A stretch of 13,205 bases of DNA from a virus (taxonomy: Duplodnaviria > Heunggongvirae > Uroviricota > Caudoviricetes). How positions within the stretch are numbered: the first letter of the stretch is position 1; every line of letters starts with the position of its first letter. The DNA lies in IMG/VR virus record IMGVR_UViG_2671180849_000011. One strand, given 5' to 3'. The notes under the pieces were generated by a model. That model saw only the letters and a list, made by a program, of their open reading frames with translations. It did no database searches and had not been told where the DNA came from. Positions 266-12,913 of this stretch are shown here, in pieces. A program made the translations under genes and the position numbers.

Positions 266-2392
266 TTAGAAAAGCTGGTTAGATTCCTGTGTGGCTTTCC
301 AATCCAACTGATCGCTGACTTCCTTCTGGATCACCCTGGCAATTCCACCCTCATCGATGGTTATCTCCCATTTGCCGGAAATCTCACCTTGTGGAACTAC
401 ATTAACCTGAGCAGGTTGATAGCCACCATTCTGAATAGCCGTACCAGTGCTAGGAGTAGGACGTGACGGGCTAATTGTTGGATATGGATTAAAGGAAGCT
501 CCTTTGCTGATGTAGCTATGGTTATAGGCCCCTGGCTTGGTCATAGCATCCTGCTCATCACTGAGAAGGCCTTTAGATTTAGCCCACTCCCCGAACTGAT
601 CAGCCTTGCTTTGCATCCATCCTCTGAACTTCTCACCTACCGTCTTAGCGCCAAGTGCGCCAGCGACACCAACACCCACACCTGCGGCACTGCCAGCGGC
701 TAATGCTGTTGTTGGGCTTCCAGCGACTGCCCCGCCAGCACCCTTAACGAGATTGCCCAGACCTGGAATCTTGCCTATCAGAGAAATCAGTTGGGTGACA
801 AGTGAAACAAATCCGGTTAGAGGGGAAAGCAGTGTAGTAATAACTTTCAGACCAGCTAAGCCGACTACCAATTTTCCGATAAGCTCGCCAACCTCTGATC
901 CGGTCATGCCGAACTCTTTAGCCTTGACCTCGATATATCCCTTAGCAAAGCCTACCCAATACATGATCTCCCGCATGGCAGCTCCGACTGCCTCACCAAA
1001 CTGTTTTGCCGCGCTCCCGCTGCCGTCCATATCAGTGGTGAGGTCTTCGAAGATGGAGATCAGAGATTCAGATAAGCTAATAACGCCATCTGCAGGATCC
1101 ACAACACCCATAAATTGAATCGCCAGCTCGTTAAAGCTGTTTTTCATGCGCTGCATTGCTACTTCTGGCTGTTTCATGGATTCAGCAAAAGCTTTAGTTT
1201 CTTTTGCAGCACCCCATATTTTCACCAAAGAAGGAAGTAGCTTGTCCAGGGTGATTTTGCCATCTTTAAGGGCTTTATCGAATTCCTGGGCATTCTTGAT
1301 GATTCCGGCATCAATAGCGGCCTGTTGGAAGTCCTGTTGTGAGCCTGCAAAGGCTTCTGACAGTTGGCCCCGCAGCTCTTCAGCCATAACTTTTCCCTTT
1401 GAAGCCATTTGTTGGACCGCAACAAGCGCCCTGTTCTGTTGCTCACCAGTAGCACCCACTGAGCGGCCTTTAATAGCCATAGCCTCAAAGAGAGCCTGCT
1501 TATCAGATTCCTTCATGGTGGGGGTAGCTGCAGCAAAGCGCATGTAGCCCCCTTGCATCTCCCGCTCATCCATCCCATAGGTGTAGGCTGTGTTCTTGAT
1601 AAAAGCCATCTGCTGATCAGTCTTGGCTTTATCATCCTTGTTCTGTGCCATCAAACCGAAGTAGGCACTGTTGCGATCTGCAAGGCTACCCATAGCACCA
1701 CTAACAGCACGCTGAACACCCCAGCCAGCGGCAGTAAGGCCAATGGCTATCTTGCCTAGTGTGGAGTTGATTTTGCCCAGGTTGTCATGCACCTTGCTGG
1801 CACCTGATGCCAGTTTATCCAGTCTGCTCTGAAATTTTCCGGCCTCTACTGTTGCCATCTTCATTTCAGATCTGAGCCGGGCCATTTTCTGATTATAGGT
1901 CTGCAGGTTAATAGCCCCTTTAGCATAATCAGCATTAACTCTCTGGATTCTGGATTGGAACTGAGCAACCAGGGAGCCATCAAACATGCTGCTGATTCGT
2001 GCACTGTTGGCCCCTACACGGGCCTTTCTGTGCTGAACATCTCCAACACTACGATCTAACAGTTTTTGTTGTCTGGCGGCCTCTCTGGCTTGCTGCTGAT
2101 AGAACTTGCGCATAGAGGAGAGCTCCGGATTATTGCCCCCGGTCAGACGGCTAACAGCCTGAGCACGTTGTTTCTTCTGTGCTCTGGCGATCTGCTCTTC
2201 CACCTTAGCGCGTGTTCTTTGTGTTCTGAGCACAGCCTGATTAGATTTAAAATCAGCTTTAGCTATATCGTCGGTAGCTTTCTTCCAGGATTTTTTATAA
2301 TCCTCAAGCCGTTTAACTTCTTTTCGCCAGCTGGATTTATCAGAATCCCAGTAAATAACGTTTGTTAGTCTGGCGATTTCCTTCATTGCCAT
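266..2392 (-). CDS. tail tape-measure-like protein (708 aa)
   Basis: Long ORF; N-terminal Q/R/A/K-rich predicted coiled coil; central segment (ALVAVQQMASKGKVMAEELRGQLSEAFAGS...) that I read as tape-measure-like; Gly/Ala/Val-rich hydrophobic stretch typical of tape measure proteins; RBS GGCGAGGTG before ATG at 2392; translationally coupled to the upstream gene. Confidence 0.55.
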   Translation of the reverse strand: MAMKEIARLTNVIYWDSDKSSWRKEVKRLEDYKKSWKKATDDIAKADFKSNQAVLRTQRTRAKVEEQIARAQKKQRAQAVSRLTGGNNPELSSMRKFYQQQAREAARQQKLLDRSVGDVQHRKARVGANSARISSMFDGSLVAQFQSRIQRVNADYAKGAINLQTYNQKMARLRSEMKMATVEAGKFQSRLDKLASGASKVHDNLGKINSTLGKIAIGLTAAGWGVQRAVSGAMGSLADRNSAYFGLMAQNKDDKAKTDQQMAFIKNTAYTYGMDEREMQGGYMRFAAATPTMKESDKQALFEAMAIKGRSVGATGEQQNRALVAVQQMASKGKVMAEELRGQLSEAFAGSQQDFQQAAIDAGIIKNAQEFDKALKDGKITLDKLLPSLVKIWGAAKETKAFAESMKQPEVAMQRMKNSFNELAIQFMGVVDPADGVISLSESLISIFEDLTTDMDGSGSAAKQFGEAVGAAMREIMYWVGFAKGYIEVKAKEFGMTGSEVGELIGKLVVGLAGLKVITTLLSPLTGFVSLVTQLISLIGKIPGLGNLVKGAGGAVAGSPTTALAAGSAAGVGVGVAGALGAKTVGEKFRGWMQSKADQFGEWAKSKGLLSDEQDAMTKPGAYNHSYISKGASFNPYPTISPSRPTPSTGTAIQNGGYQPAQVNVVPQGEISGKWEITIDEGGIARVIQKEVSDQLDWKATQESNQLF

Positions 2393-5786: not shown

Positions 5787-5808
5787 TATTGACAACCAAT
5801 TGTCAATA
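5787..5808. promoter_or_regulatory. palindromic operator overlapping candidate leftward promoter
   Basis: Perfect inverted repeat TTGACAA (5789-5795) - CCAA - TTGTCAA (5800-5806), arms extend to 9 bp; on the - strand TTGACA, 17-bp spacer, TAAGAT; a third half-site TTGTCAAT at 5929-5936. Confidence 0.4.
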
Positions 5809-6424
5809 GGAATCATTATCATTTAGGCGAGCTATAGGTACAAACAAGTCCACAGCAAAGGGGTAAGCATTATTAATGGCCCCTACCGTGTCAAAACCAA
5901 AGTCACTTATAGCATTTATGCAATAAGATTGTCAATGGCCCACAAGGGAGGGAGAGCACTTTTTGCCTTAAGCGCTCTAAAATCGATTCTAACGCGATTT
6001 AGAGGTCAGGTAATGCAATTGCACTACTCACACAAGTTAATGCAGCCAGAAGGCCATTTAGGGGCCTTATTTTCGATTTCTGAGCGTCCTGTTACGTGTG
6101 TGCATACACGGGCGCGCGGAATCCCTCGCTTAAACGGTCCGGATTGGAAACAGAAGTCTCTTATCCGGACTCCACATTATATAGCTACGTGCTATCGCAC
6201 TACGCTACCCACACACAGGCCGACGTAGTCGGTTTAGCTGTATAGCTAAAGTCACAGAGTGACCCACACACAGATTGCCTAAAGAGTCGCTAATGCTCTT
6301 TAGGCTTTCATTTGTGGGTTAAGCTTTTCCCTTAGAAAACCTTCCCCACTCTCTGATCCCTCCCCATTCCCCTTGGGGGGTTAGGGGGGGATCTGTTGTG
6401 TGATCTATTAATTTATCTATTAGA

Positions 6425-6645
6425 GTGAGAAATTTTCAGGGGTACTAGTGAGAAATCTTCGGTAGTAGTGGTGAGAAATTCTCAGGGGTGTGGGTAGGTA
6501 TGGTGGTTAAGTAGTGAGAAATCTTCAGTAGTTAGAGGCTGTGTATCATGGGGGCAATGACTGCAAAACGGGAAAGCATGACTGTATAAACACACAGGTG
6601 TGAAAATTCTTCACAGGTTAGCGACACCGGAAAAATCTTCAGTAG
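6425..6645. repeat. iteron-like direct repeats, six copies of about 18 bp (consensus GTGAGAAATCTTCAG(G/T)(G/A)G)
   Basis: Copies at 6425-6442, 6448-6465, 6471-6488 (exact 23-bp phasing), 6514-6531, 6598-6617 (degenerate), 6630-6645; preceded by G-run GGGGGGTTAGGGGGGG 6375-6390. Confidence 0.6.
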
Positions 6646-6655
6646 TGTCTATCTG

Positions 6656-6753
6656 CATATGTGGGAAATACACCCTTATTGACCTATTTTGACTAGCAAA
6701 CCTCTCTCTTCTCTCTTTGCTCTGATTTCCTCTCATGTGTGGGAAATATGCAT
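6656..6753. repeat. second repeat family CAT(A/G)TGTGGGAAATA (two copies) flanking a CT-rich tract
   Basis: catatgtgggaaata at 6656-6670 and catgtgtgggaaata at 6734-6748; pyrimidine-rich tract 6701-6734; a related copy aaaatgtgggatata near 7047-7061. Confidence 0.45.
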
Positions 6754-7488
6754 ACCAACACCCGTTGATTTTATCAATAGCTATGTTGACCGGGCATCAT
6801 AAGTGTGGCCCCTGAGGCAGTCCATCCTTCCCTCACACAGGACAATGAATATATAAAGAACATGAAAGACTGTTCACACCAACACGCCGATAAATTGCCT
6901 GAAGAGGCTTACATGGGGTTATTGTTGTGTGGGTAATGGTGATCATGCTAACAGATTATGTTAATCAGATGTAAATTCCGATTTTGTGGTCTGCATGGAG
7001 CAAACTATACTGGTTAAATGATCAGGGGAATGACTACAAAACAATCAAAAATGTGGGATATAGCCATCTACACGTCTAATGTGCTGTGTGGGGTGTTAGT
7101 GCATGCTTACATGTAAGTCATTGATTTGAAGGGTTGGGAAAATTGCATTTAACATAATAGATCTTATCTACACTAATAAAGCGAACTACAAAATCTGATT
7201 TAAAAATCATGATCAGTGGGCACAGAATTTACGTACAGCCACCTGAATAAATAATGTGCACAACATACAGCAAAGCTTAAGAATTAACATAATAGCAACG
7301 TGGTCAGTAGTGGTGTGATATTTGAGAATTGTTAGAAGAAAAAAGGGAGGTGGGGGAGCGCCTGCCTGGCACCTCAGACGAGTTACCCATAAGCTCAAAT
7401 ACCGCTAATGGATATTTCTGACACCCACACCCAAGACCGCTTTCAGCACATAGCCATATAGCCACACAGGACCGCACAGGATGCAATT

Positions 7489-7698
7489 GTGATAACAAAA
7501 AATGGGGGTGTAATAGGGTAGGTCACCTTTCATCAAAATCACTTCTACGACGTTTCCAGAGTGATAACAAGAAAACAGGCCTCTAAGATTATCTGTGCCT
7601 CGTTTTTAGCTTTTTGTGTGGTTACCAGGTGAAGAGGAAATGTTAAAAACTGTTCATTTTATGCACAAACTAGTCAGGGTGATACCACAAAATGAGGT
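7489..7698. repeat. third repeat family GTGATA(A/C)CA-A-rich-GG, three copies
   Basis: gtgataacaaaaaatggggg 7489-7508, gtgataacaagaaaacagg 7561-7579, gtgataccacaaaatgagg 7679-7697; DnaA-box-like TTATGCACA at 7659-7667. Confidence 0.45.
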
Positions 7699-7887
7699 GT
7701 AAGAAATCCAGCTGCAGATAATCTTGCAGCCAGATTTTGCAGTTTTTTAGGGTATGTTAAATTTGACAAAAATAGAGAAAAGGCTTATTAAGCTAACTTA
7801 TTGATTTTATTAGTATTACGAAAAAGGGTTACACCCTCTCTCTTACTCTGTCAACCGGGCGGTTGTGGCATAAAACGGATTAAATCA

Positions 7888-7946
7888 ATAAATAGGCATT
7901 AAATAGGGGATAAATAGGGGTTAATTGAGGGATAAATAAAAAGGGG
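7888..7946. repeat. five tandem 11-bp phased repeats (A/T)TAAAT(A/T)GGGG
   Basis: Units start at 7888, 7899, 7910, 7921, 7932 (exact 11-bp period); last unit merges into the terminator stem. Confidence 0.55.
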
Positions 7947-7959
7947 CCGTGATGGCCCC
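7931..7959 (-). terminator. rho-independent terminator of the membrane-protein gene
   Basis: Stem GGGGCC (7943-7948) / GGCCCC (7954-7959), loop GTGAT; - strand tail TTTTTATTTATC (complement of 7931-7942); 8 nt past stop codon 7968-7970. Confidence 0.6.
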
Positions 7960-7967
7960 CTGGTAGG

Positions 7968-9069: not shown

Positions 9070-9336
9070 GTTTGTTCGGTTGGGGTGCTATCAATGATCC
9101 CCTTCCTTGATTCGAACTATAGCCGGGTAAATCACTGGAAAACATTGATATTGATCAAAAGATATCTATCACGAATGAAAAAGTTATGATAGATGATAGG
9201 AGTCGCATAGCTGCGACCTTGGCTGTGTGCCAAGCCTGCAAAGCAGGTCAGGGATGAGGTGACGTATTGATGGGATTGATAGAGGTCTGAAAATACCGTT
9301 ACCACGCTAATTATTAGAATTTATATAATCAGGATG

Positions 9337-9365
9337 TTGACAATGTGAGTAAATACTGATATAAT
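9337..9365 (+). promoter_or_regulatory. perfect-consensus sigma70 promoter (TTGACA - 17 bp - TATAAT) with AT-rich upstream region
   Basis: TTGACA 9337-9342, exactly 17-bp spacer, TATAAT 9360-9365; AT-rich 9305-9335 (UP-element-like); faces the capsid genes. Confidence 0.65.
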
Positions 9366-9373
9366 ATACAGTA
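9354..9373. promoter_or_regulatory. LexA-type SOS box overlapping the -10 element
   Basis: TACTGATATAATATACAGTA matches the E. coli-type consensus TACTG(TA)5CAGTA at all ten flanking positions with an AT-only core. Confidence 0.45.
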
Positions 9374-9508
9374 TACCGTGAATCATTTAGCGAAGGTGGT
9401 TTACCGTATTTTCCTCCAAAGTAACGGCGACCAGGTAGCGGTGCCGCCTTATAAATAACACTACCCTGATCATCGTTGAGTGGTCGATTAATTCTCCTAT
9501 TGGGCTAG

Positions 9509-9517
9509 TTATCCACA
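9509..9517 (+). promoter_or_regulatory. consensus DnaA box TTATCCACA inside the capsid-operon leader
   Basis: Exact 9-mer; also the 5' arm of an inverted repeat CCACACAG (9513-9520) / CTGTGTGG (9539-9546). Confidence 0.3.
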
Positions 9518-9845
9518 CAGTTTTCTTTTGCGGGTTTTCTGTGTGGGTAGCTATCCCGAAAGGTATTTCCCCGCTGATGTGACCGCAGCCTGAACTGATT
9601 CGGGGGAGTGCCTTTCGTGATAGTGCTCTCTAGCAACCGTAACCATGCAGTGAACTATCAGCCAACTGTTGTTGGTTTTCCCCATATGGAATAGCCCCCG
9701 CTTGGACGGTGCGGGGCTATCTCCCTCTCCTTATATCAATCCCCCTTTAGATTTCCGGCATAACTTTTCGGCCCGAGCCTGTCGTGGTTTGAGAGGTTAT
9801 ACCTGAACCCTTTGAGGGGAGTTAATTTAAATCGCAGGTGATCAA

Positions 9846-10181
9846 ATGAGAGATATGACTATCCGCACACGCGGACACATCATTTCATACGCCGCAGATG
9901 AGCAATTTAGTATTCGCGACGTTGAAGTTAAAAACAAAGTTAAGACTGAGATTCCGGCTGGCACTGTTGTTGTGGTGACTGAGGCTGGCGAGGTTGAGAC
10001 CTTCGTTAAAGCAACGCACACCGGTAAAACTCCGCTGCTGGTTGTAGAACGTGCTGAAGTTGGTGATTCCTTTATCGTTGTTGCGAACAAAGGTTGCTAC
10101 ATCAATCCGGCCTATGTGGACAAAGACGGCTTAGCCGCTGTTGTTGCTGCCAGCAATGGCGATTTGCGTGTTGCACAATAA
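9846..10181 (+). CDS. head decoration-like protein (111 aa), assignment by position
   Basis: ATG 9846 preceded by AGGTGA at 5-nt spacing; strongly biased high-expression-type codons; immediately upstream of the capsid gene, as gpD is in lambda; no sequence similarity to lambda gpD recognised. Confidence 0.5.
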   Translation: MRDMTIRTRGHIISYAADEQFSIRDVEVKNKVKTEIPAGTVVVVTEAGEVETFVKATHTGKTPLLVVERAEVGDSFIVVANKGCYINPAYVDKDGLAAVVAASNGDLRVAQ

Positions 10182-10192
10182 GGAGGTTGAAA

Positions 10193-11239
10193 ATGGCTAA
10201 GAAAGAATTCGAAGTTCGCGATCTGTGTGGTCTGATTAAAGATATCCCGCCGGATAACATGATTATTTCTGCAATGGATATCTTCAACACTACTGCTCTG
10301 TGCAATACCTTTAAATTTGAATATGACAAAGTTCGCCAGGTGAAACAAACCGCTTTCGGTCAGTATCCGCGCTACGGTGAACAGATGGCTACCATTACCG
10401 CAGATGAGCGTGAAACGGGCACGGGTGATATGGCATTCACTGCCGCATCAAGTGCTATTTATCCTTCTGACTGGCAGGGTATCCGCGTTCCTGGCAAAGA
10501 TTCCGAAGAGAATCTAGAGTCTGTAACCGCTCGTCGTGTTATTCAGCTGGGCGAAGGCTTACGCCAGACCCACGAAGAAGCACGCCAGCTTGCTCTCTTT
10601 GAGAACAAAATTATCCTCACCAAGGGTAAAGAACTGAATGTGTGCGAACTGCTGGGCGCACAGCAAACCACTTCAGAAGTGGATCTAACTCAAGATATCC
10701 TTAAACAGCTGCAGGACCTGGTTGCACTGAGCAAGGTTAAACAGCGTGGTGTCGTTCGTGCCCTGCGTGGTTTCACCCTGTTCTGCCGTGCTGAACTGTT
10801 TACCGCTATTCAGACTGATGAACTGCTCCGTAAAGTGCTGTTGTTCGGCAATCAGAACATTACCGACAAAGGTCTGATGTTCCCTGAGGATATTCTGCCG
10901 GGCTTCCCGACCTTCCGCATTCCGGGCTTAGCCCTGCGTGTGGTGCAAATGGATAGTCTGCCAGAGAATACTGCTTATCTGGTCCCACAGTTCCAGCCGC
11001 ATGCGTTAGGCGATATGGTGGGCGTTTATACTCAATTTTTCGGCCCTTGCGCTCGCAACCTGAAGCTGGCAAACGGCGCTGCACGTGAAGCTTTCATGTA
11101 TATGGAAGAGTCCAGAGGCAAACGCGAAATCTTCGTTGAATCCTCTTATGCTTTCATGAACATGATGCCTGAAGTTGTGGTTAAAGTGAGTGTTAAAAAC
11201 ACCGCCGCCGCTGCTCTGGCAAAAGCCAAGGCTAAATAA
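10193..11239 (+). CDS. major capsid protein, lambda gpE-like family (348 aa)
   Basis: ATG 10193 preceded by AAGGAGG at 6-nt spacing (track ORF starts at an upstream TTG); strong codon bias; collinear matches to lambda gpE as I recall it (FKF near N-terminus, LPENT versus LPDNT, C-terminal V-S-V); size fits. Confidence 0.6.
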   Translation: MAKKEFEVRDLCGLIKDIPPDNMIISAMDIFNTTALCNTFKFEYDKVRQVKQTAFGQYPRYGEQMATITADERETGTGDMAFTAASSAIYPSDWQGIRVPGKDSEENLESVTARRVIQLGEGLRQTHEEARQLALFENKIILTKGKELNVCELLGAQQTTSEVDLTQDILKQLQDLVALSKVKQRGVVRALRGFTLFCRAELFTAIQTDELLRKVLLFGNQNITDKGLMFPEDILPGFPTFRIPGLALRVVQMDSLPENTAYLVPQFQPHALGDMVGVYTQFFGPCARNLKLANGAAREAFMYMEESRGKREIFVESSYAFMNMMPEVVVKVSVKNTAAAALAKAKAK

Positions 11240-11243
11240 AAGC

Positions 11244-11296
11244 AAAGGGAAGAGGTGGGAGATTGTGGGTAGGTCTTTCCCTCTTCCCTTTTTTGT
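11244..11296 (+). terminator. strong rho-independent terminator after the capsid gene
   Basis: 12-bp stem AAAGGGAAGAGG (11244-11255) / CCTCTTCCCTTT (11280-11291) then T-run to 11294; begins 5 nt after stop codon. Confidence 0.65.
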
Positions 11297-11328
11297 TATC
11301 CCCGTCTTAAGTTTTTGAGGTGTCTTTT

Positions 11329-11580
11329 ATGAAAATTGTTTTATACGGCGACCGTGACGACGTGCCTTTTGATATTATCCATATCGATGACGAGGATCTG
11401 CCGGAATTCCTGCGTATCTCCACATTTGCCGCCTGCTATGACGTTAGCCGCCAGGCTATGCATAAATACCGTGAATATAATAAATGCACCTGGGCCGAGA
11501 CTTTCGAACATTTTATTGCACGCAAACAAGCCCAGGACCGCAAAAAAGCCCTGAATGCGCATAATCGTTTTGCAAAATAA
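11329..11580 (+). CDS. hypothetical small protein (83 aa)
   Basis: ATG 11329 preceded by GAGGTG at 6-nt spacing (track ORF starts at GTG 11320); acidic N-terminus, basic C-terminus. Confidence 0.5.
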   Translation: MKIVLYGDRDDVPFDIIHIDDEDLPEFLRISTFAACYDVSRQAMHKYREYNKCTWAETFEHFIARKQAQDRKKALNAHNRFAK

Positions 11581-11654
11581 CGATAGATAGCCCTGTCTTT
11601 TTATCAGAATTCACACAGGGCCACCAAAAGATTCAATTTGGAGGCATGTTTAAT

Positions 11655-12458
11655 ATGGCTAGTGATGCTCTGACAGCTGCAAAACAAGCTGAGTCGAGAT
11701 CTCCTGCATTCACTGTTATGTGTGGGGGATATTCACAAAACAAAAATATAATGGATGGCTTCAACTATACCGATAATGTGGCTATCTTCTTTGACTCTAT
11801 CTCTGATGTCAGCTATTCGTTCCCTGTTGAGAAATCGAGCTATGCGGTCGAGGATGGCACCACCATGTCAGACCATGCCGTCATTAAAGATAAATCTGTC
11901 AGCTTTACGGGTATTATTACCTCTTCCCCTCACATTATCCGGAAAGAGAACTACATCGACCGGAACACTGATCCAGATAATCCCCGTGAATCTATGCGCC
12001 CTGCTGCCGCTGTTCAGGCACTTATGGAAATGAGAGACAAGCGCCAGCTAGTTAGCCTGGTAAGTGAAGATGCCGGACTCCTTGAGAACTTCATCATGAC
12101 GAAATGTGAAGTTAAGCGTAGCTCTTCCTCTGGCGACTGCATCACTATTGATTGCACTTTTGAAGAATTCCGCACCTTCAAGGTGAAGATGGTCGAAAAT
12201 GCCGGAGTTTTCACTAACAGTAAGAAGGTGAATAAAACACAGCAAAAGGGTGCTGTTAACAGTGCTAAAGAGGGTAGTAACGCTGGCAATGCTGCTACGA
12301 AATCTACCAGAGCTAAGCATCGCGGGGAATATGCACAGGGAGAGGCAGCGGGAAAGATTGCCGCAGGTGATAAGTCTGTCGTGTCGAATGAGTTCCACGA
12401 AACGATGATTGATAAGGCCAACATGTTGCTTGATGACATCACGGAGATCAACAAATGA
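11655..12458 (+). CDS. hypothetical protein (267 aa; 270 aa if ATG 11646)
   Basis: GGAGG 11640-11644 is 1 nt from ATG 11646 but 10 nt from ATG 11655; Ser/Thr-rich; stop overlaps next start (ATGA). Confidence 0.55.
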   Translation: MASDALTAAKQAESRSPAFTVMCGGYSQNKNIMDGFNYTDNVAIFFDSISDVSYSFPVEKSSYAVEDGTTMSDHAVIKDKSVSFTGIITSSPHIIRKENYIDRNTDPDNPRESMRPAAAVQALMEMRDKRQLVSLVSEDAGLLENFIMTKCEVKRSSSSGDCITIDCTFEEFRTFKVKMVENAGVFTNSKKVNKTQQKGAVNSAKEGSNAGNAATKSTRAKHRGEYAQGEAAGKIAAGDKSVVSNEFHETMIDKANMLLDDITEINK

Positions 12459-12913
12459 GTCCGAAAGTCCGTTGCACCATAGACAAGCGCATGATGGATA
12501 AGCTGCATAAAGAGCTCTCACAGATGGAAGGTGTAGCGGTTGGCTGGGATGACGGGAAACACTATAGCGGCCTGAATTACGCCACACTGGCAGCAATTCA
12601 TTCTGAGGGGTGGGGTGATCTGCCTAAGCGCTCCTTTATGGAATCTGCCCACGCAGCAATGCTCTATGAGAGCCTGAGACACACAAAAGCCCTGATTAAT
12701 GCAATCGTAAAGGGTGGGAGCTCTGAGGCCGTCAGGAAGCGAATAGGCAAGCGATACGCCGACATTCTGGAGACTATCCTGATTAGTGGGCAATTCAGCA
12801 ACAACAAGGTTTCCCCACAATGGGCAAGCTATAAAGGCTTCAATGATGCCATGCGCCACTATGATGATTTGATCGGTGCAATCAAATACTGGTCAAATGT
12901 GGGGAGAGGTTGA
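12455..12913 (+). CDS. hypothetical protein (152 aa), translationally coupled
   Basis: ATG 12455 overlaps upstream stop (ATGA); GGAG 8 nt upstream; no recognisable motif. Confidence 0.55.
   Translation: MSPKVRCTIDKRMMDKLHKELSQMEGVAVGWDDGKHYSGLNYATLAAIHSEGWGDLPKRSFMESAHAAMLYESLRHTKALINAIVKGGSSEAVRKRIGKRYADILETILISGQFSNNKVSPQWASYKGFNDAMRHYDDLIGAIKYWSNVGRG

Follow-up and report, generated by a model that had tools for sequence, protein, structure and literature searches.

The 13,205-nt stretch analysed here, referred to below as the window and filed as virus record IMGVR_UViG_2671180849_000011, is an entire small circular plasmid of Escherichia coli. Its single perfect-consensus promoter, P9337 (9337-9365, plus strand), heads the rightward structural unit in a family of ~13-kb circular plasmids from E. 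coli. The predicted first product of P9337 is an untranslated, structured RNA of ~350 nt with a terminator-type end ~120 nt before the first head gene, and p111, together with the gene for the major capsid protein (MCP) and the later genes, would probably be expressed by read-through of this leader, be it through regulated termination/antitermination or through processing. In the window and in 6 of the 14 other close relatives, a G at the predicted +1 completes a LexA box, at which LexA would repress the promoter until the SOS response sets in. The account as a whole, with a strong promoter, a gating leader RNA, and a head operon, and with LexA as a strain-variable accessory, has in our judgment about an even chance of being correct; the transcription start, the binding of LexA, termination in vivo, and the signal for read-through are features that we infer.

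The plasmid nature of the window rests on several observations. Its MCP gene lies on a 13,236-bp Logan contig that corresponds to the window plus a 31-mer overlap, and contigs with close MCP homologs are nearly all 13.2 to 14.3 kb in length. A comparison with 5426 complete E. coli genomes matched the whole window to seven circular plasmids of 13.3 to 13.7 kb (90% to 95% identity), one of them assembled as a 39.6-kb trimer; in each of the 7 genomes with a family member this was a plasmid, and no chromosomal copy was found. Because whole-window matches were to circular plasmids only, we consider the window to represent the entire plasmid, of ~13.2 kb. The host isolates stem from humans, chickens, cattle, and pigs and from several continents, and the plasmid was classified as non-mobilizable by MOB-suite. 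A metagenome scan yielded four more members and one chance match (L017). The comparisons below rely on a tally of 15 close relatives, the window included, made up of ten aligned plasmids and further members from metagenomes and assemblies, as well as on two divergent lineages, L011 and L025, whose MCPs are 81% and 50% identical, respectively, to that of the window.

P9337 can be read directly: a -35 hexamer TTGACA (9337-9342) lying within the extended -35 sequence TGTTGACAAT (9335-9344), a 17-nt spacer ending in TGA, and a -10 hexamer TATAAT (9360-9365), with the TG at 9357-9358 providing a TGn extended -10 (9357-9359) of the sigma70 type. An AT-rich, UP-like stretch precedes it at 9308-9329 (plus strand). 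P9337 is the sole promoter-like site in the window that matches the consensus at 12 of 12 positions, and its exact pattern occurred in none of 200 dinucleotide shuffles. An earlier reading made from the letters of the window alone (hereafter, the sequence-only reading) had described an exact-consensus promoter behind an AT-rich stretch, and this description holds, with conservation across the family added to it. Both hexamers are unchanged in all 15 close relatives, and in the ten aligned plasmids the segment from ~9258 to 9370, with the hexamers and TACTGATATAATATACA, is free of changes; the UP-like stretch is likewise identical in all ten. The counterpart in L011 reads TTGACA-17-TAAAAT with a TGn and follows an AT-rich, partly conserved UP-like region (TTATTAGAA), and that in L025 reads TTGACT-17-TATAAT, again behind AT-rich DNA. 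We expect P9337 to be constitutively strong, with a putative start near 9370-9373. No convincing operator-like repeats for the small divergent HTH_7 protein, which is encoded between the two operons of the plasmid, were found near P9337. Upstream of the promoter, an insertion of ~60 nt (9195-9257) with three short hairpins (GTCGCA..TGCGAC, TTGGC..GCCAA, and CCTGC..GCAGG) is present in the window, pE275a_13, p7_14_47A, p3RM10740, and L012, and absent from the other members.

The -10 hexamer and the predicted +1 are covered by a LexA-type box, TACTGATATAATATACAGTA (9354-9373). As the sequence-only reading stated, all ten flanking positions agree with TACTG/CAGTA and the core consists of A and T only. 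The 16-mer core of the box (9356-9371) reads CTG-ATATAATATA-CAG, flanked by TA, and has the CTG-N10-CAG form of LexA operators (PMC8072944, PMC2994835). The full box is identical to the 20-nt E. coli LexA consensus, TACTGTATATATATACAGTA (PMC8072944), at only 15 of 20 positions because its left half-site is CTGATA instead of CTGTAT. That reading had proposed matrix scoring as a check, and the box scored 17.6 to 17.8 bits with a heterology-type index (HI) of 7.1 on an approximate matrix derived from 28 E. coli boxes; these values fall in the middle of the range of the training boxes (12.9 to 25 bits, HI 2 to 11.6), and the HI fits the span of ~1.5 to 13 given for functional LexA boxes (PMC8072944). 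When the window was shuffled 300 times with a Markov model, an equally good site arose in just 2 cases, and TACTG-N10-CAGTA with at most one mismatch is expected 0.24 times per window. The position of the box, over the -10 and +1, is one at which predicted LexA binding would occlude RNA polymerase, again in line with the earlier proposal. In its palindrome, TA flanks, A/T core, occluding position, and score within the functional range (PMC2994835, PMC8072944), the site resembles the E. coli LexA operators that lie over -10/+1 in the sulA, umuDC, and colicin promoters. Unlike those operators, it is a predicted site that is polymorphic within the family and has a left arm, CTGA rather than CTGT, that doubles as an extended -10.

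The distribution of the box among relatives limits what can be built on it. CTG-N10-CAG is present in 7 of the 15 close relatives; the other 8 read ATATACATAT, in which one G at the predicted start is missing, CAG has become CAT, and the score falls to ~5 bits. Within the ten aligned plasmids, the right arm CAG occurs in only half. The 20-mers in the same register score -0.1 bits in L011 and -15 bits in L025, so that the box is absent from both divergent lineages and the operator is not conserved at orthologous promoters. The CAG and CAT states are each found with both types of the 5' hairpin sequence that follows downstream, which implies more than one mutational event or recombination at exactly this point. 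Furthermore, since the extended -10 by itself fixes CTGAT, the left arm, along with the A/T core, only the right arm CAGTA carries independent information on LexA. The best reading of this pattern is that LexA control is an optional addition that varies between strains and does not define how the unit works, as is suggested by the lack of the box in eight relatives and both divergent lineages. The idea of a capsid cassette inducible by DNA damage accordingly survives in part: the window has a good box and direct SOS induction of its capsid genes is possible, but such induction would not be a conserved design, given the patchy occurrence of the box, a left arm that is also a promoter motif, and the leader that intervenes.

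LexA-like boxes that are better conserved than the one at the promoter occur elsewhere on the plasmid. One, of 17.8 bits, lies among the iterons of the origin region (6580-6599); 10 of 12 complete members retain its CTGTAT...ACAG arms, around any of three cores, although the surrounding iterons differ. Another (7008-7027), in the ORF-free block (ORF, open reading frame), is shared by 11 of 12 members at 12 to 15 bits, and the equivalent block of L025 contains a box of 21.4 bits. For comparison, only three sites of at least 11 bits were found in the genome of a 135-kb rV5-like phage. The family is thus probably wired to the SOS response, mainly through boxes in the origin and ORF-free block and not through the one at the promoter.

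The distance from P9337 to the first head gene is ~480 nt, in which no conserved ORF was found. Most of it, from the predicted start to a terminal hairpin (9371-9724, plus strand; ~350 nt), has the properties of an ORF-free structured leader or non-coding RNA, as judged from conservation, folding, and covariation. Column identity over 9401-9600 is 0.99, compared with a plasmid mean of 0.87; apart from the convergent intergenic region, no part of the plasmid is more conserved than this stretch. Relative to shuffled sequences, the plus strand folds with z = -4.6 and the minus strand with z = -1.6, and the leader of L011 with z = -3.8. The consensus fold of the close family and L011 comprises 97 pairs with 96.5% of cells paired, and contains 11 compensatory pairs, versus 2.1 ± 1.0 in shuffles (none of 500 reached this number) and 1 to 5 in slid registers. 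The leader opens with a 5' hairpin, GUGAAUCA...UGGUUUAC (9378-9404, plus strand), which is its only variable stretch; read by eye, the stem is retained in several versions with differing loops among close relatives (AAUCAA/UUGAUU, GUAAAUCA/UGAUUUGC, and GUGAAUCA/UGGUUUAC). A long central hairpin containing CTGTGTGGG (9502-9556, plus strand; helix 5/6, 18 + 3 pairs, 94% to 100% paired) has three compensatory pairs against L011, and a further compensatory pair, CCAAC/GTTGG versus CCGAC/GTCGG, is found within the close family at 9662-9675. The core helix, in which GCUAUC.CGAAAGGUAUU (9550-9567) pairs with AGUGCCUUUCG.GAUAGU (9607-9624), is common to the close family, L011, and L025, and compensatory changes affect four of its positions once L025 is added.

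A covariance model of this core domain (R1) scored 96 bits for the window, 83 for L025, and 52 for L011, and retrieved nothing from a 135-kb rV5-like phage genome. Rfam 15 was searched with the whole window and, at E ≤ 10, with 9330-9860 and with the leader of L011, and gave no credible match; the window is devoid of tRNA and tmRNA genes, and the leader motif had no match in IMG/VR and GTDB. Neither the leader nor any other non-coding block of the plasmid had a counterpart in an rV5-like genome by blastn, nhmmer, or covariance model. At the level of comparative sequence analysis, conservation, folding, and covariation together show the leader to be a conserved, structured, untranslated RNA that has no match in Rfam.

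The leader closes with a terminator-type hairpin (9688-9724, plus strand; -21.3 kcal/mol). Its homologs are followed by U9 in L011 and U7 in L025, forming canonical intrinsic terminators; in the close E. coli family, the tail after the hairpin is CUCCCUCUCC, which lacks a U-tract. The hairpin is followed at 9725-9757 (plus strand) by a C-rich, G-poor tract that is conserved in the family (~15 C and 1 G in 38 nt) and is a possible Rho-utilisation-like region. No promoter-like site was seen between the terminal hairpin and the start codon of p111. Because a structured leader with a terminator-type end intervenes, firing of P9337 need not switch on the capsid genes. Here the claim that the promoter is aimed at capsid genes needs amending: P9337 does point at p111 and the MCP gene, but across ~480 nt that include the structured leader and its hairpin. 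An attenuator-type pairing of the G/C runs at 9581 and 9601 with the terminal hairpin, noticed by eye, was dropped because neither L011 nor L025 conserves it. Immediately behind the capsid gene, at 11240-11300, a second hairpin, GGGAAGAGG...CCTCTTCCC, is followed by TTTTTTG; rV5-like phages also have a terminator behind the MCP gene, and with such a hairpin in place the later genes of the operon would need read-through, too.

These data were weighed against three other explanations. LexA might repress P9337 such that DNA damage directly switches on the capsid cassette without a late activator, in the style of operon I of the staphylococcal pathogenicity islands (SaPIs). The precedent is that of Ubeda et al. 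2007, as cited in PMC6092414, and such control would be in keeping with a box whose 17.6 bits and HI of 7.1 lie within functional ranges (HI ranges, PMC8072944), with its overlap of -10/+1, with the absence of a visible second promoter before the head genes, and with other boxes in the family that look selected (the arms at 6580 with their three cores and the 21.4-bit box of L025). We nevertheless hold it to be unlikely: the 8 relatives and both divergent lineages without the box retain the promoter and the leader, the left arm is accounted for by the promoter motif, ~350 nt of structured leader with a terminator-type end precede the capsid genes, and the structural genes are akin to those of virulent rV5-like phages, for which the SOS response is not an obvious cue. 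Conversely, the box could be a neutral by-product of an AT-rich extended -10 and a slippage-prone (TA)n/G start, with a constitutive promoter making a stand-alone, trans-acting non-coding RNA that works, for instance, on helper-phage or host functions, and with the head genes driven by other means, such as a phage-modified polymerase or read-through only in infection. A 1-nt indel indeed makes or loses the box, both states occur on both 5' hairpin types, a textbook terminator ends the RNA in two of three lineages, as in a discrete RNA gene, and the RNA core is better conserved than the coding genes. On the other hand, an rV5-like genome yielded neither target complementarity nor a counterpart, p111 has no alternative promoter before it, and all three lineages keep the RNA at a fixed place directly ahead of the head operon, which suggests a role in cis; we rate this explanation as unlikely, too, and as slightly less probable than the one before.

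Finally, the conserved stretch could be a DNA element, namely a packaging (cos/pac) site or an origin, which the promoter merely activates or flanks. Sites of the cos/pac kind often lie just upstream of head genes, as does this stretch, its DNA is very highly conserved, and TGTGTGGG, a motif enriched in the ORF-free block, recurs in the leader. However, the compensatory changes and G-U pairs work on the plus strand only, and folding of the minus strand is no stronger than that of shuffles; there is no similarity to rV5-like phage DNA, and an iteron-type origin lies elsewhere (6425-6660). This explanation seems very improbable to us. Returning to the account of a strong promoter with a gating leader and an accessory LexA box, several points weigh against it as well. 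Without a U-tract in the close family, read-through could be the default and the leader an ordinary long 5' untranslated region; the start site, the RNA 3' end, and termination are all predicted; covariation comes from effectively three lineages, and the alignments used for it are those on which the structures were predicted; and LexA-like boxes are enriched in the family, so that the promoter box, too, could be a selected, functional operator.

The genes behind the leader begin with p111 (9846-10181, plus strand), the first rightward gene, whose product is a possible head decoration protein by gene order only: p111 precedes the MCP gene, as the decoration gene does in rV5-like phages, with no sequence similarity between the product and the decoration protein, and the single-sequence AlphaFold2 model of p111 was unusable (pLDDT 37). 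The MCP (10193-11239, plus strand) is of the lambda-E/rV5 type (phrog_29, E = 5.5e-21) and shares 24% identity with rV5-like MCPs over 96% of its length; its homolog P0019 carries PF03864. The rest of the operon (11329-12913, plus strand; PF21821, E = 2.3e-25, and phrog_222, E = 7.9e-29) encodes p83, a Dit-like tail tube initiator (11655-12458), and p152, a protein resembling neck/tail completion proteins (12455-12913); the last two are 51% and 45% identical to bas57_0019 and bas57_0011, respectively, of the rV5-like phage MaxTheCat. The leftward operon encodes a Rep-like HTH_36 protein, products of small ORFs, and a 708-aa tape measure protein (TMP; 266-2392, minus strand) that is 26.5% identical to its rV5-like relative. 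For each of the four structural proteins in which phage relatives could be detected, these relatives belong to virulent rV5-like phages of the Vequintavirinae. Among the 17 ORFs of the plasmid, no integrase, portal, protease, scaffold, terminase, or lysis gene was detected with Pfam and PHROG profiles. At the DNA level, neither the window nor the segment 8500-11300 had a match among GenBank phages; a peptide-pattern search of IMG/VR and GTDB genomes yielded no MCP relatives, p147 was not similar to phage tube and chaperone proteins, and PADLOC defence models gave no meaningful match.

Two assemblies of the family deserve mention for their architecture. L010 (NZ_CP043822.1, 39,610 bp) contains three tandem copies of the plasmid, some with scattered frameshifts, and is either an assembly artefact or a real multimer/concatemer; the latter would matter for headful packaging. 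L012 (NTNY01000053.1; 30 kb) has a transposon at 13400-21041, between the genes for the neck-like protein and the TMP, with strA/strB-type aminoglycoside phosphotransferases, a DDE transposase, and tetR as cargo, showing that the plasmid backbone can carry resistance cargo.

Between the two operons lies an ORF-poor block of ~2.2 kb (5800-7960); rV5-like phages likewise have a non-coding block, of ~2.5 kb. In the plasmid it contains iterons, GTGAGAAATYTTCAG, at ~6425-6660, the sequence of which co-varies with a Rep gene of only ~70% identity across members, and several repeat motifs near 7880-7930. The motif TGTGTGGG occurs eight times in the window against 0.37 expected (6208, 6263, 6736, 6926, 7085, 8983, 9540, and 11719) and six times in L025 against 0.23 expected (878, 986, 1093, 1454, 3610, and 5374); concentrated in the ORF-free block and present in the leader as well, it is a conserved candidate protein-binding site. 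A stretch of the block, GATATTTGAGAATTGTTAGAAGA (7317-7340), matches the non-coding block of MaxTheCat (MZ501094.1, 91576-91599) at 23 of 24 nt (blastn, E = 0.003) and is unchanged in all plasmids despite a variable flank. It was not used as evidence of a link between plasmid and phage, as its 18-mer core occurs at about chance frequency in IMG/VR, on unrelated contigs.

The leftward operon, from Rep to the TMP, is headed by a second main promoter, P5615 (5587-5615, minus strand), which reads TTGACA-17-TGATAAAATA, matches the consensus at 11 of 12 positions with a TG, and is unchanged across the family. P9337 and P5615 have TGTTGACAAT and CTGATAWAATATA in common, and TGnTAWAATA occurs exactly twice in the plasmid, at these two promoters on opposite strands. 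The two main promoters of the plasmid bear TGATATAATA and TGATAAAATA, and that of L011 bears TGATAAAATA, some with TTGACAAT at -35. The late-gene promoter motif of rV5 is TggTAaAAtA (PMC3606486), and the structural module of MaxTheCat has 12 copies of TGnTA(A/C)AATA, compared with 1.0 expected; phage promoters of the TTGACAAT...CTGATAAAAT style are present, too. Both main plasmid promoters thus have the same extended -10 motif as rV5 promoters; host sigma70 would, however, recognise such a motif as a good extended -10 in any case, and the likeness is therefore no proof of phage dependence. Downstream of P5615 and ahead of the first leftward gene, a hairpin is followed by UUUCUUUUU (5537-5513, minus strand); in pMB4926_4, a different sequence at this position again forms a hairpin with a T-run, which suggests an attenuator or small RNA controlling the replication genes.

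From its gene content, an incomplete set of virion genes with rV5-like homologs, the element is plausibly a phage satellite. We tentatively propose that these plasmids are extrachromosomal satellites, or assembly-hijacking parasites, of virulent rV5-like myophages, in which the head operon is gated by the hitherto undescribed leader RNA and its terminator behind a helper-style promoter, the gate opens upon helper infection and/or the SOS response, and LexA boxes in the origin block and at some head promoters tune the response; this proposal is possible, yet we would expect it to fail sooner than to hold. A literature search on the plasmid family, its protein accessions, and plasmid satellites of rV5-like phages found nothing, and a 2025 review lists only one known plasmid phage satellite, that of an inovirus (PMC12282955).

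The sequence-only reading had drawn a parallel with packaging operons of phage satellites, of which SaPI operon I, in staphylococcal satellites, is LexA controlled (Ubeda et al. 2007, as it is cited in PMC6092414). The parallel extends to morphogenesis genes of a putative phage-dependent element placed behind a promoter with a LexA-type site. It does not extend further: SaPIs reside as islands integrated in Gram-positive hosts and depend on temperate helpers, and their operon encodes terS and capsid-size genes, whereas the plasmid encodes its own homologs of the rV5-like MCP, TMP, and tube initiator, has a polymorphic box, and interposes a structured leader with a terminator-type end. The rightward operon (p111, MCP, p83, and the Dit-like and neck-like proteins) has no recognisable terS or capsid-size function and no conserved LexA site, and the nearest phage relatives of the plasmid are virulent rV5-like phages, not SOS-inducible temperate helpers. 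Phage-inducible chromosomal islands (PICIs) of the capsid-forming type and other satellites offer another comparison, in that a ~13-kb element encodes its own capsid protein without a full set of virion genes. The plasmid differs from PICIs, including capsid-forming ones, in being a circular iteron/Rep replicon with additional TMP, tube-initiator, and neck homologs, in which no integrase, portal, protease, or terS was detected.

For the leader, the layout recalls that of the lambdoid PR' promoter with its 6S RNA, the tR' terminator, and the antiterminator Q: a near-consensus promoter of the constitutive type is followed by a short predicted transcript with a terminator-type end, immediately upstream of late structural genes, and hexamers resembling a -10 recur just downstream of the -10 of P9337, although this is weak evidence, gathered by eye. 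Terminators of the canonical kind complete the layout in L011 and L025, and a hairpin without a U-tract takes their place in the family of the window. Unlike 6S RNA, the plasmid leader is ~350 nt long, highly structured, and conserved, and antitermination is hypothetical here; no Pfam or PHROG match to a Q-family antiterminator was found among the 17 plasmid ORFs, nor a Q-binding element on the plasmid, and a helper-encoded factor is possible. Constitutive promoters with structured leaders and premature termination are also known from the RNA-based immunity systems of elements that live as plasmids, in the form of the PLE/CI RNA of P4, the c4 RNA of P1/P7, and the CA RNA of N15. The plasmid resembles them in having a structured, untranslated leader before genes that it may control, and differs in that its leader has no Rfam match, the genes downstream are structural and not those of replication or an antirepressor, and no antisense target repeats were identified.

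By itself, a LexA box over a promoter is routine, and it is the context, the structural operon of an undescribed plasmid family, that matters. The family is globally scattered and carries only a subset of virion genes, which are related to those of virulent rV5-like phages employed in therapy and typing. Owing to the CAG/CAT polymorphism, isogenic variants exist in nature in which a single G determines whether the promoter would be visible to LexA, and in the conserved leader RNA there is a tangible candidate for a switch over capsid gene expression. Should the plasmids prove to be satellites or assembly parasites of rV5-like phages, no plasmid-borne satellite of a tailed phage would have been known before them, and they might help determine the outcome of phage therapy.

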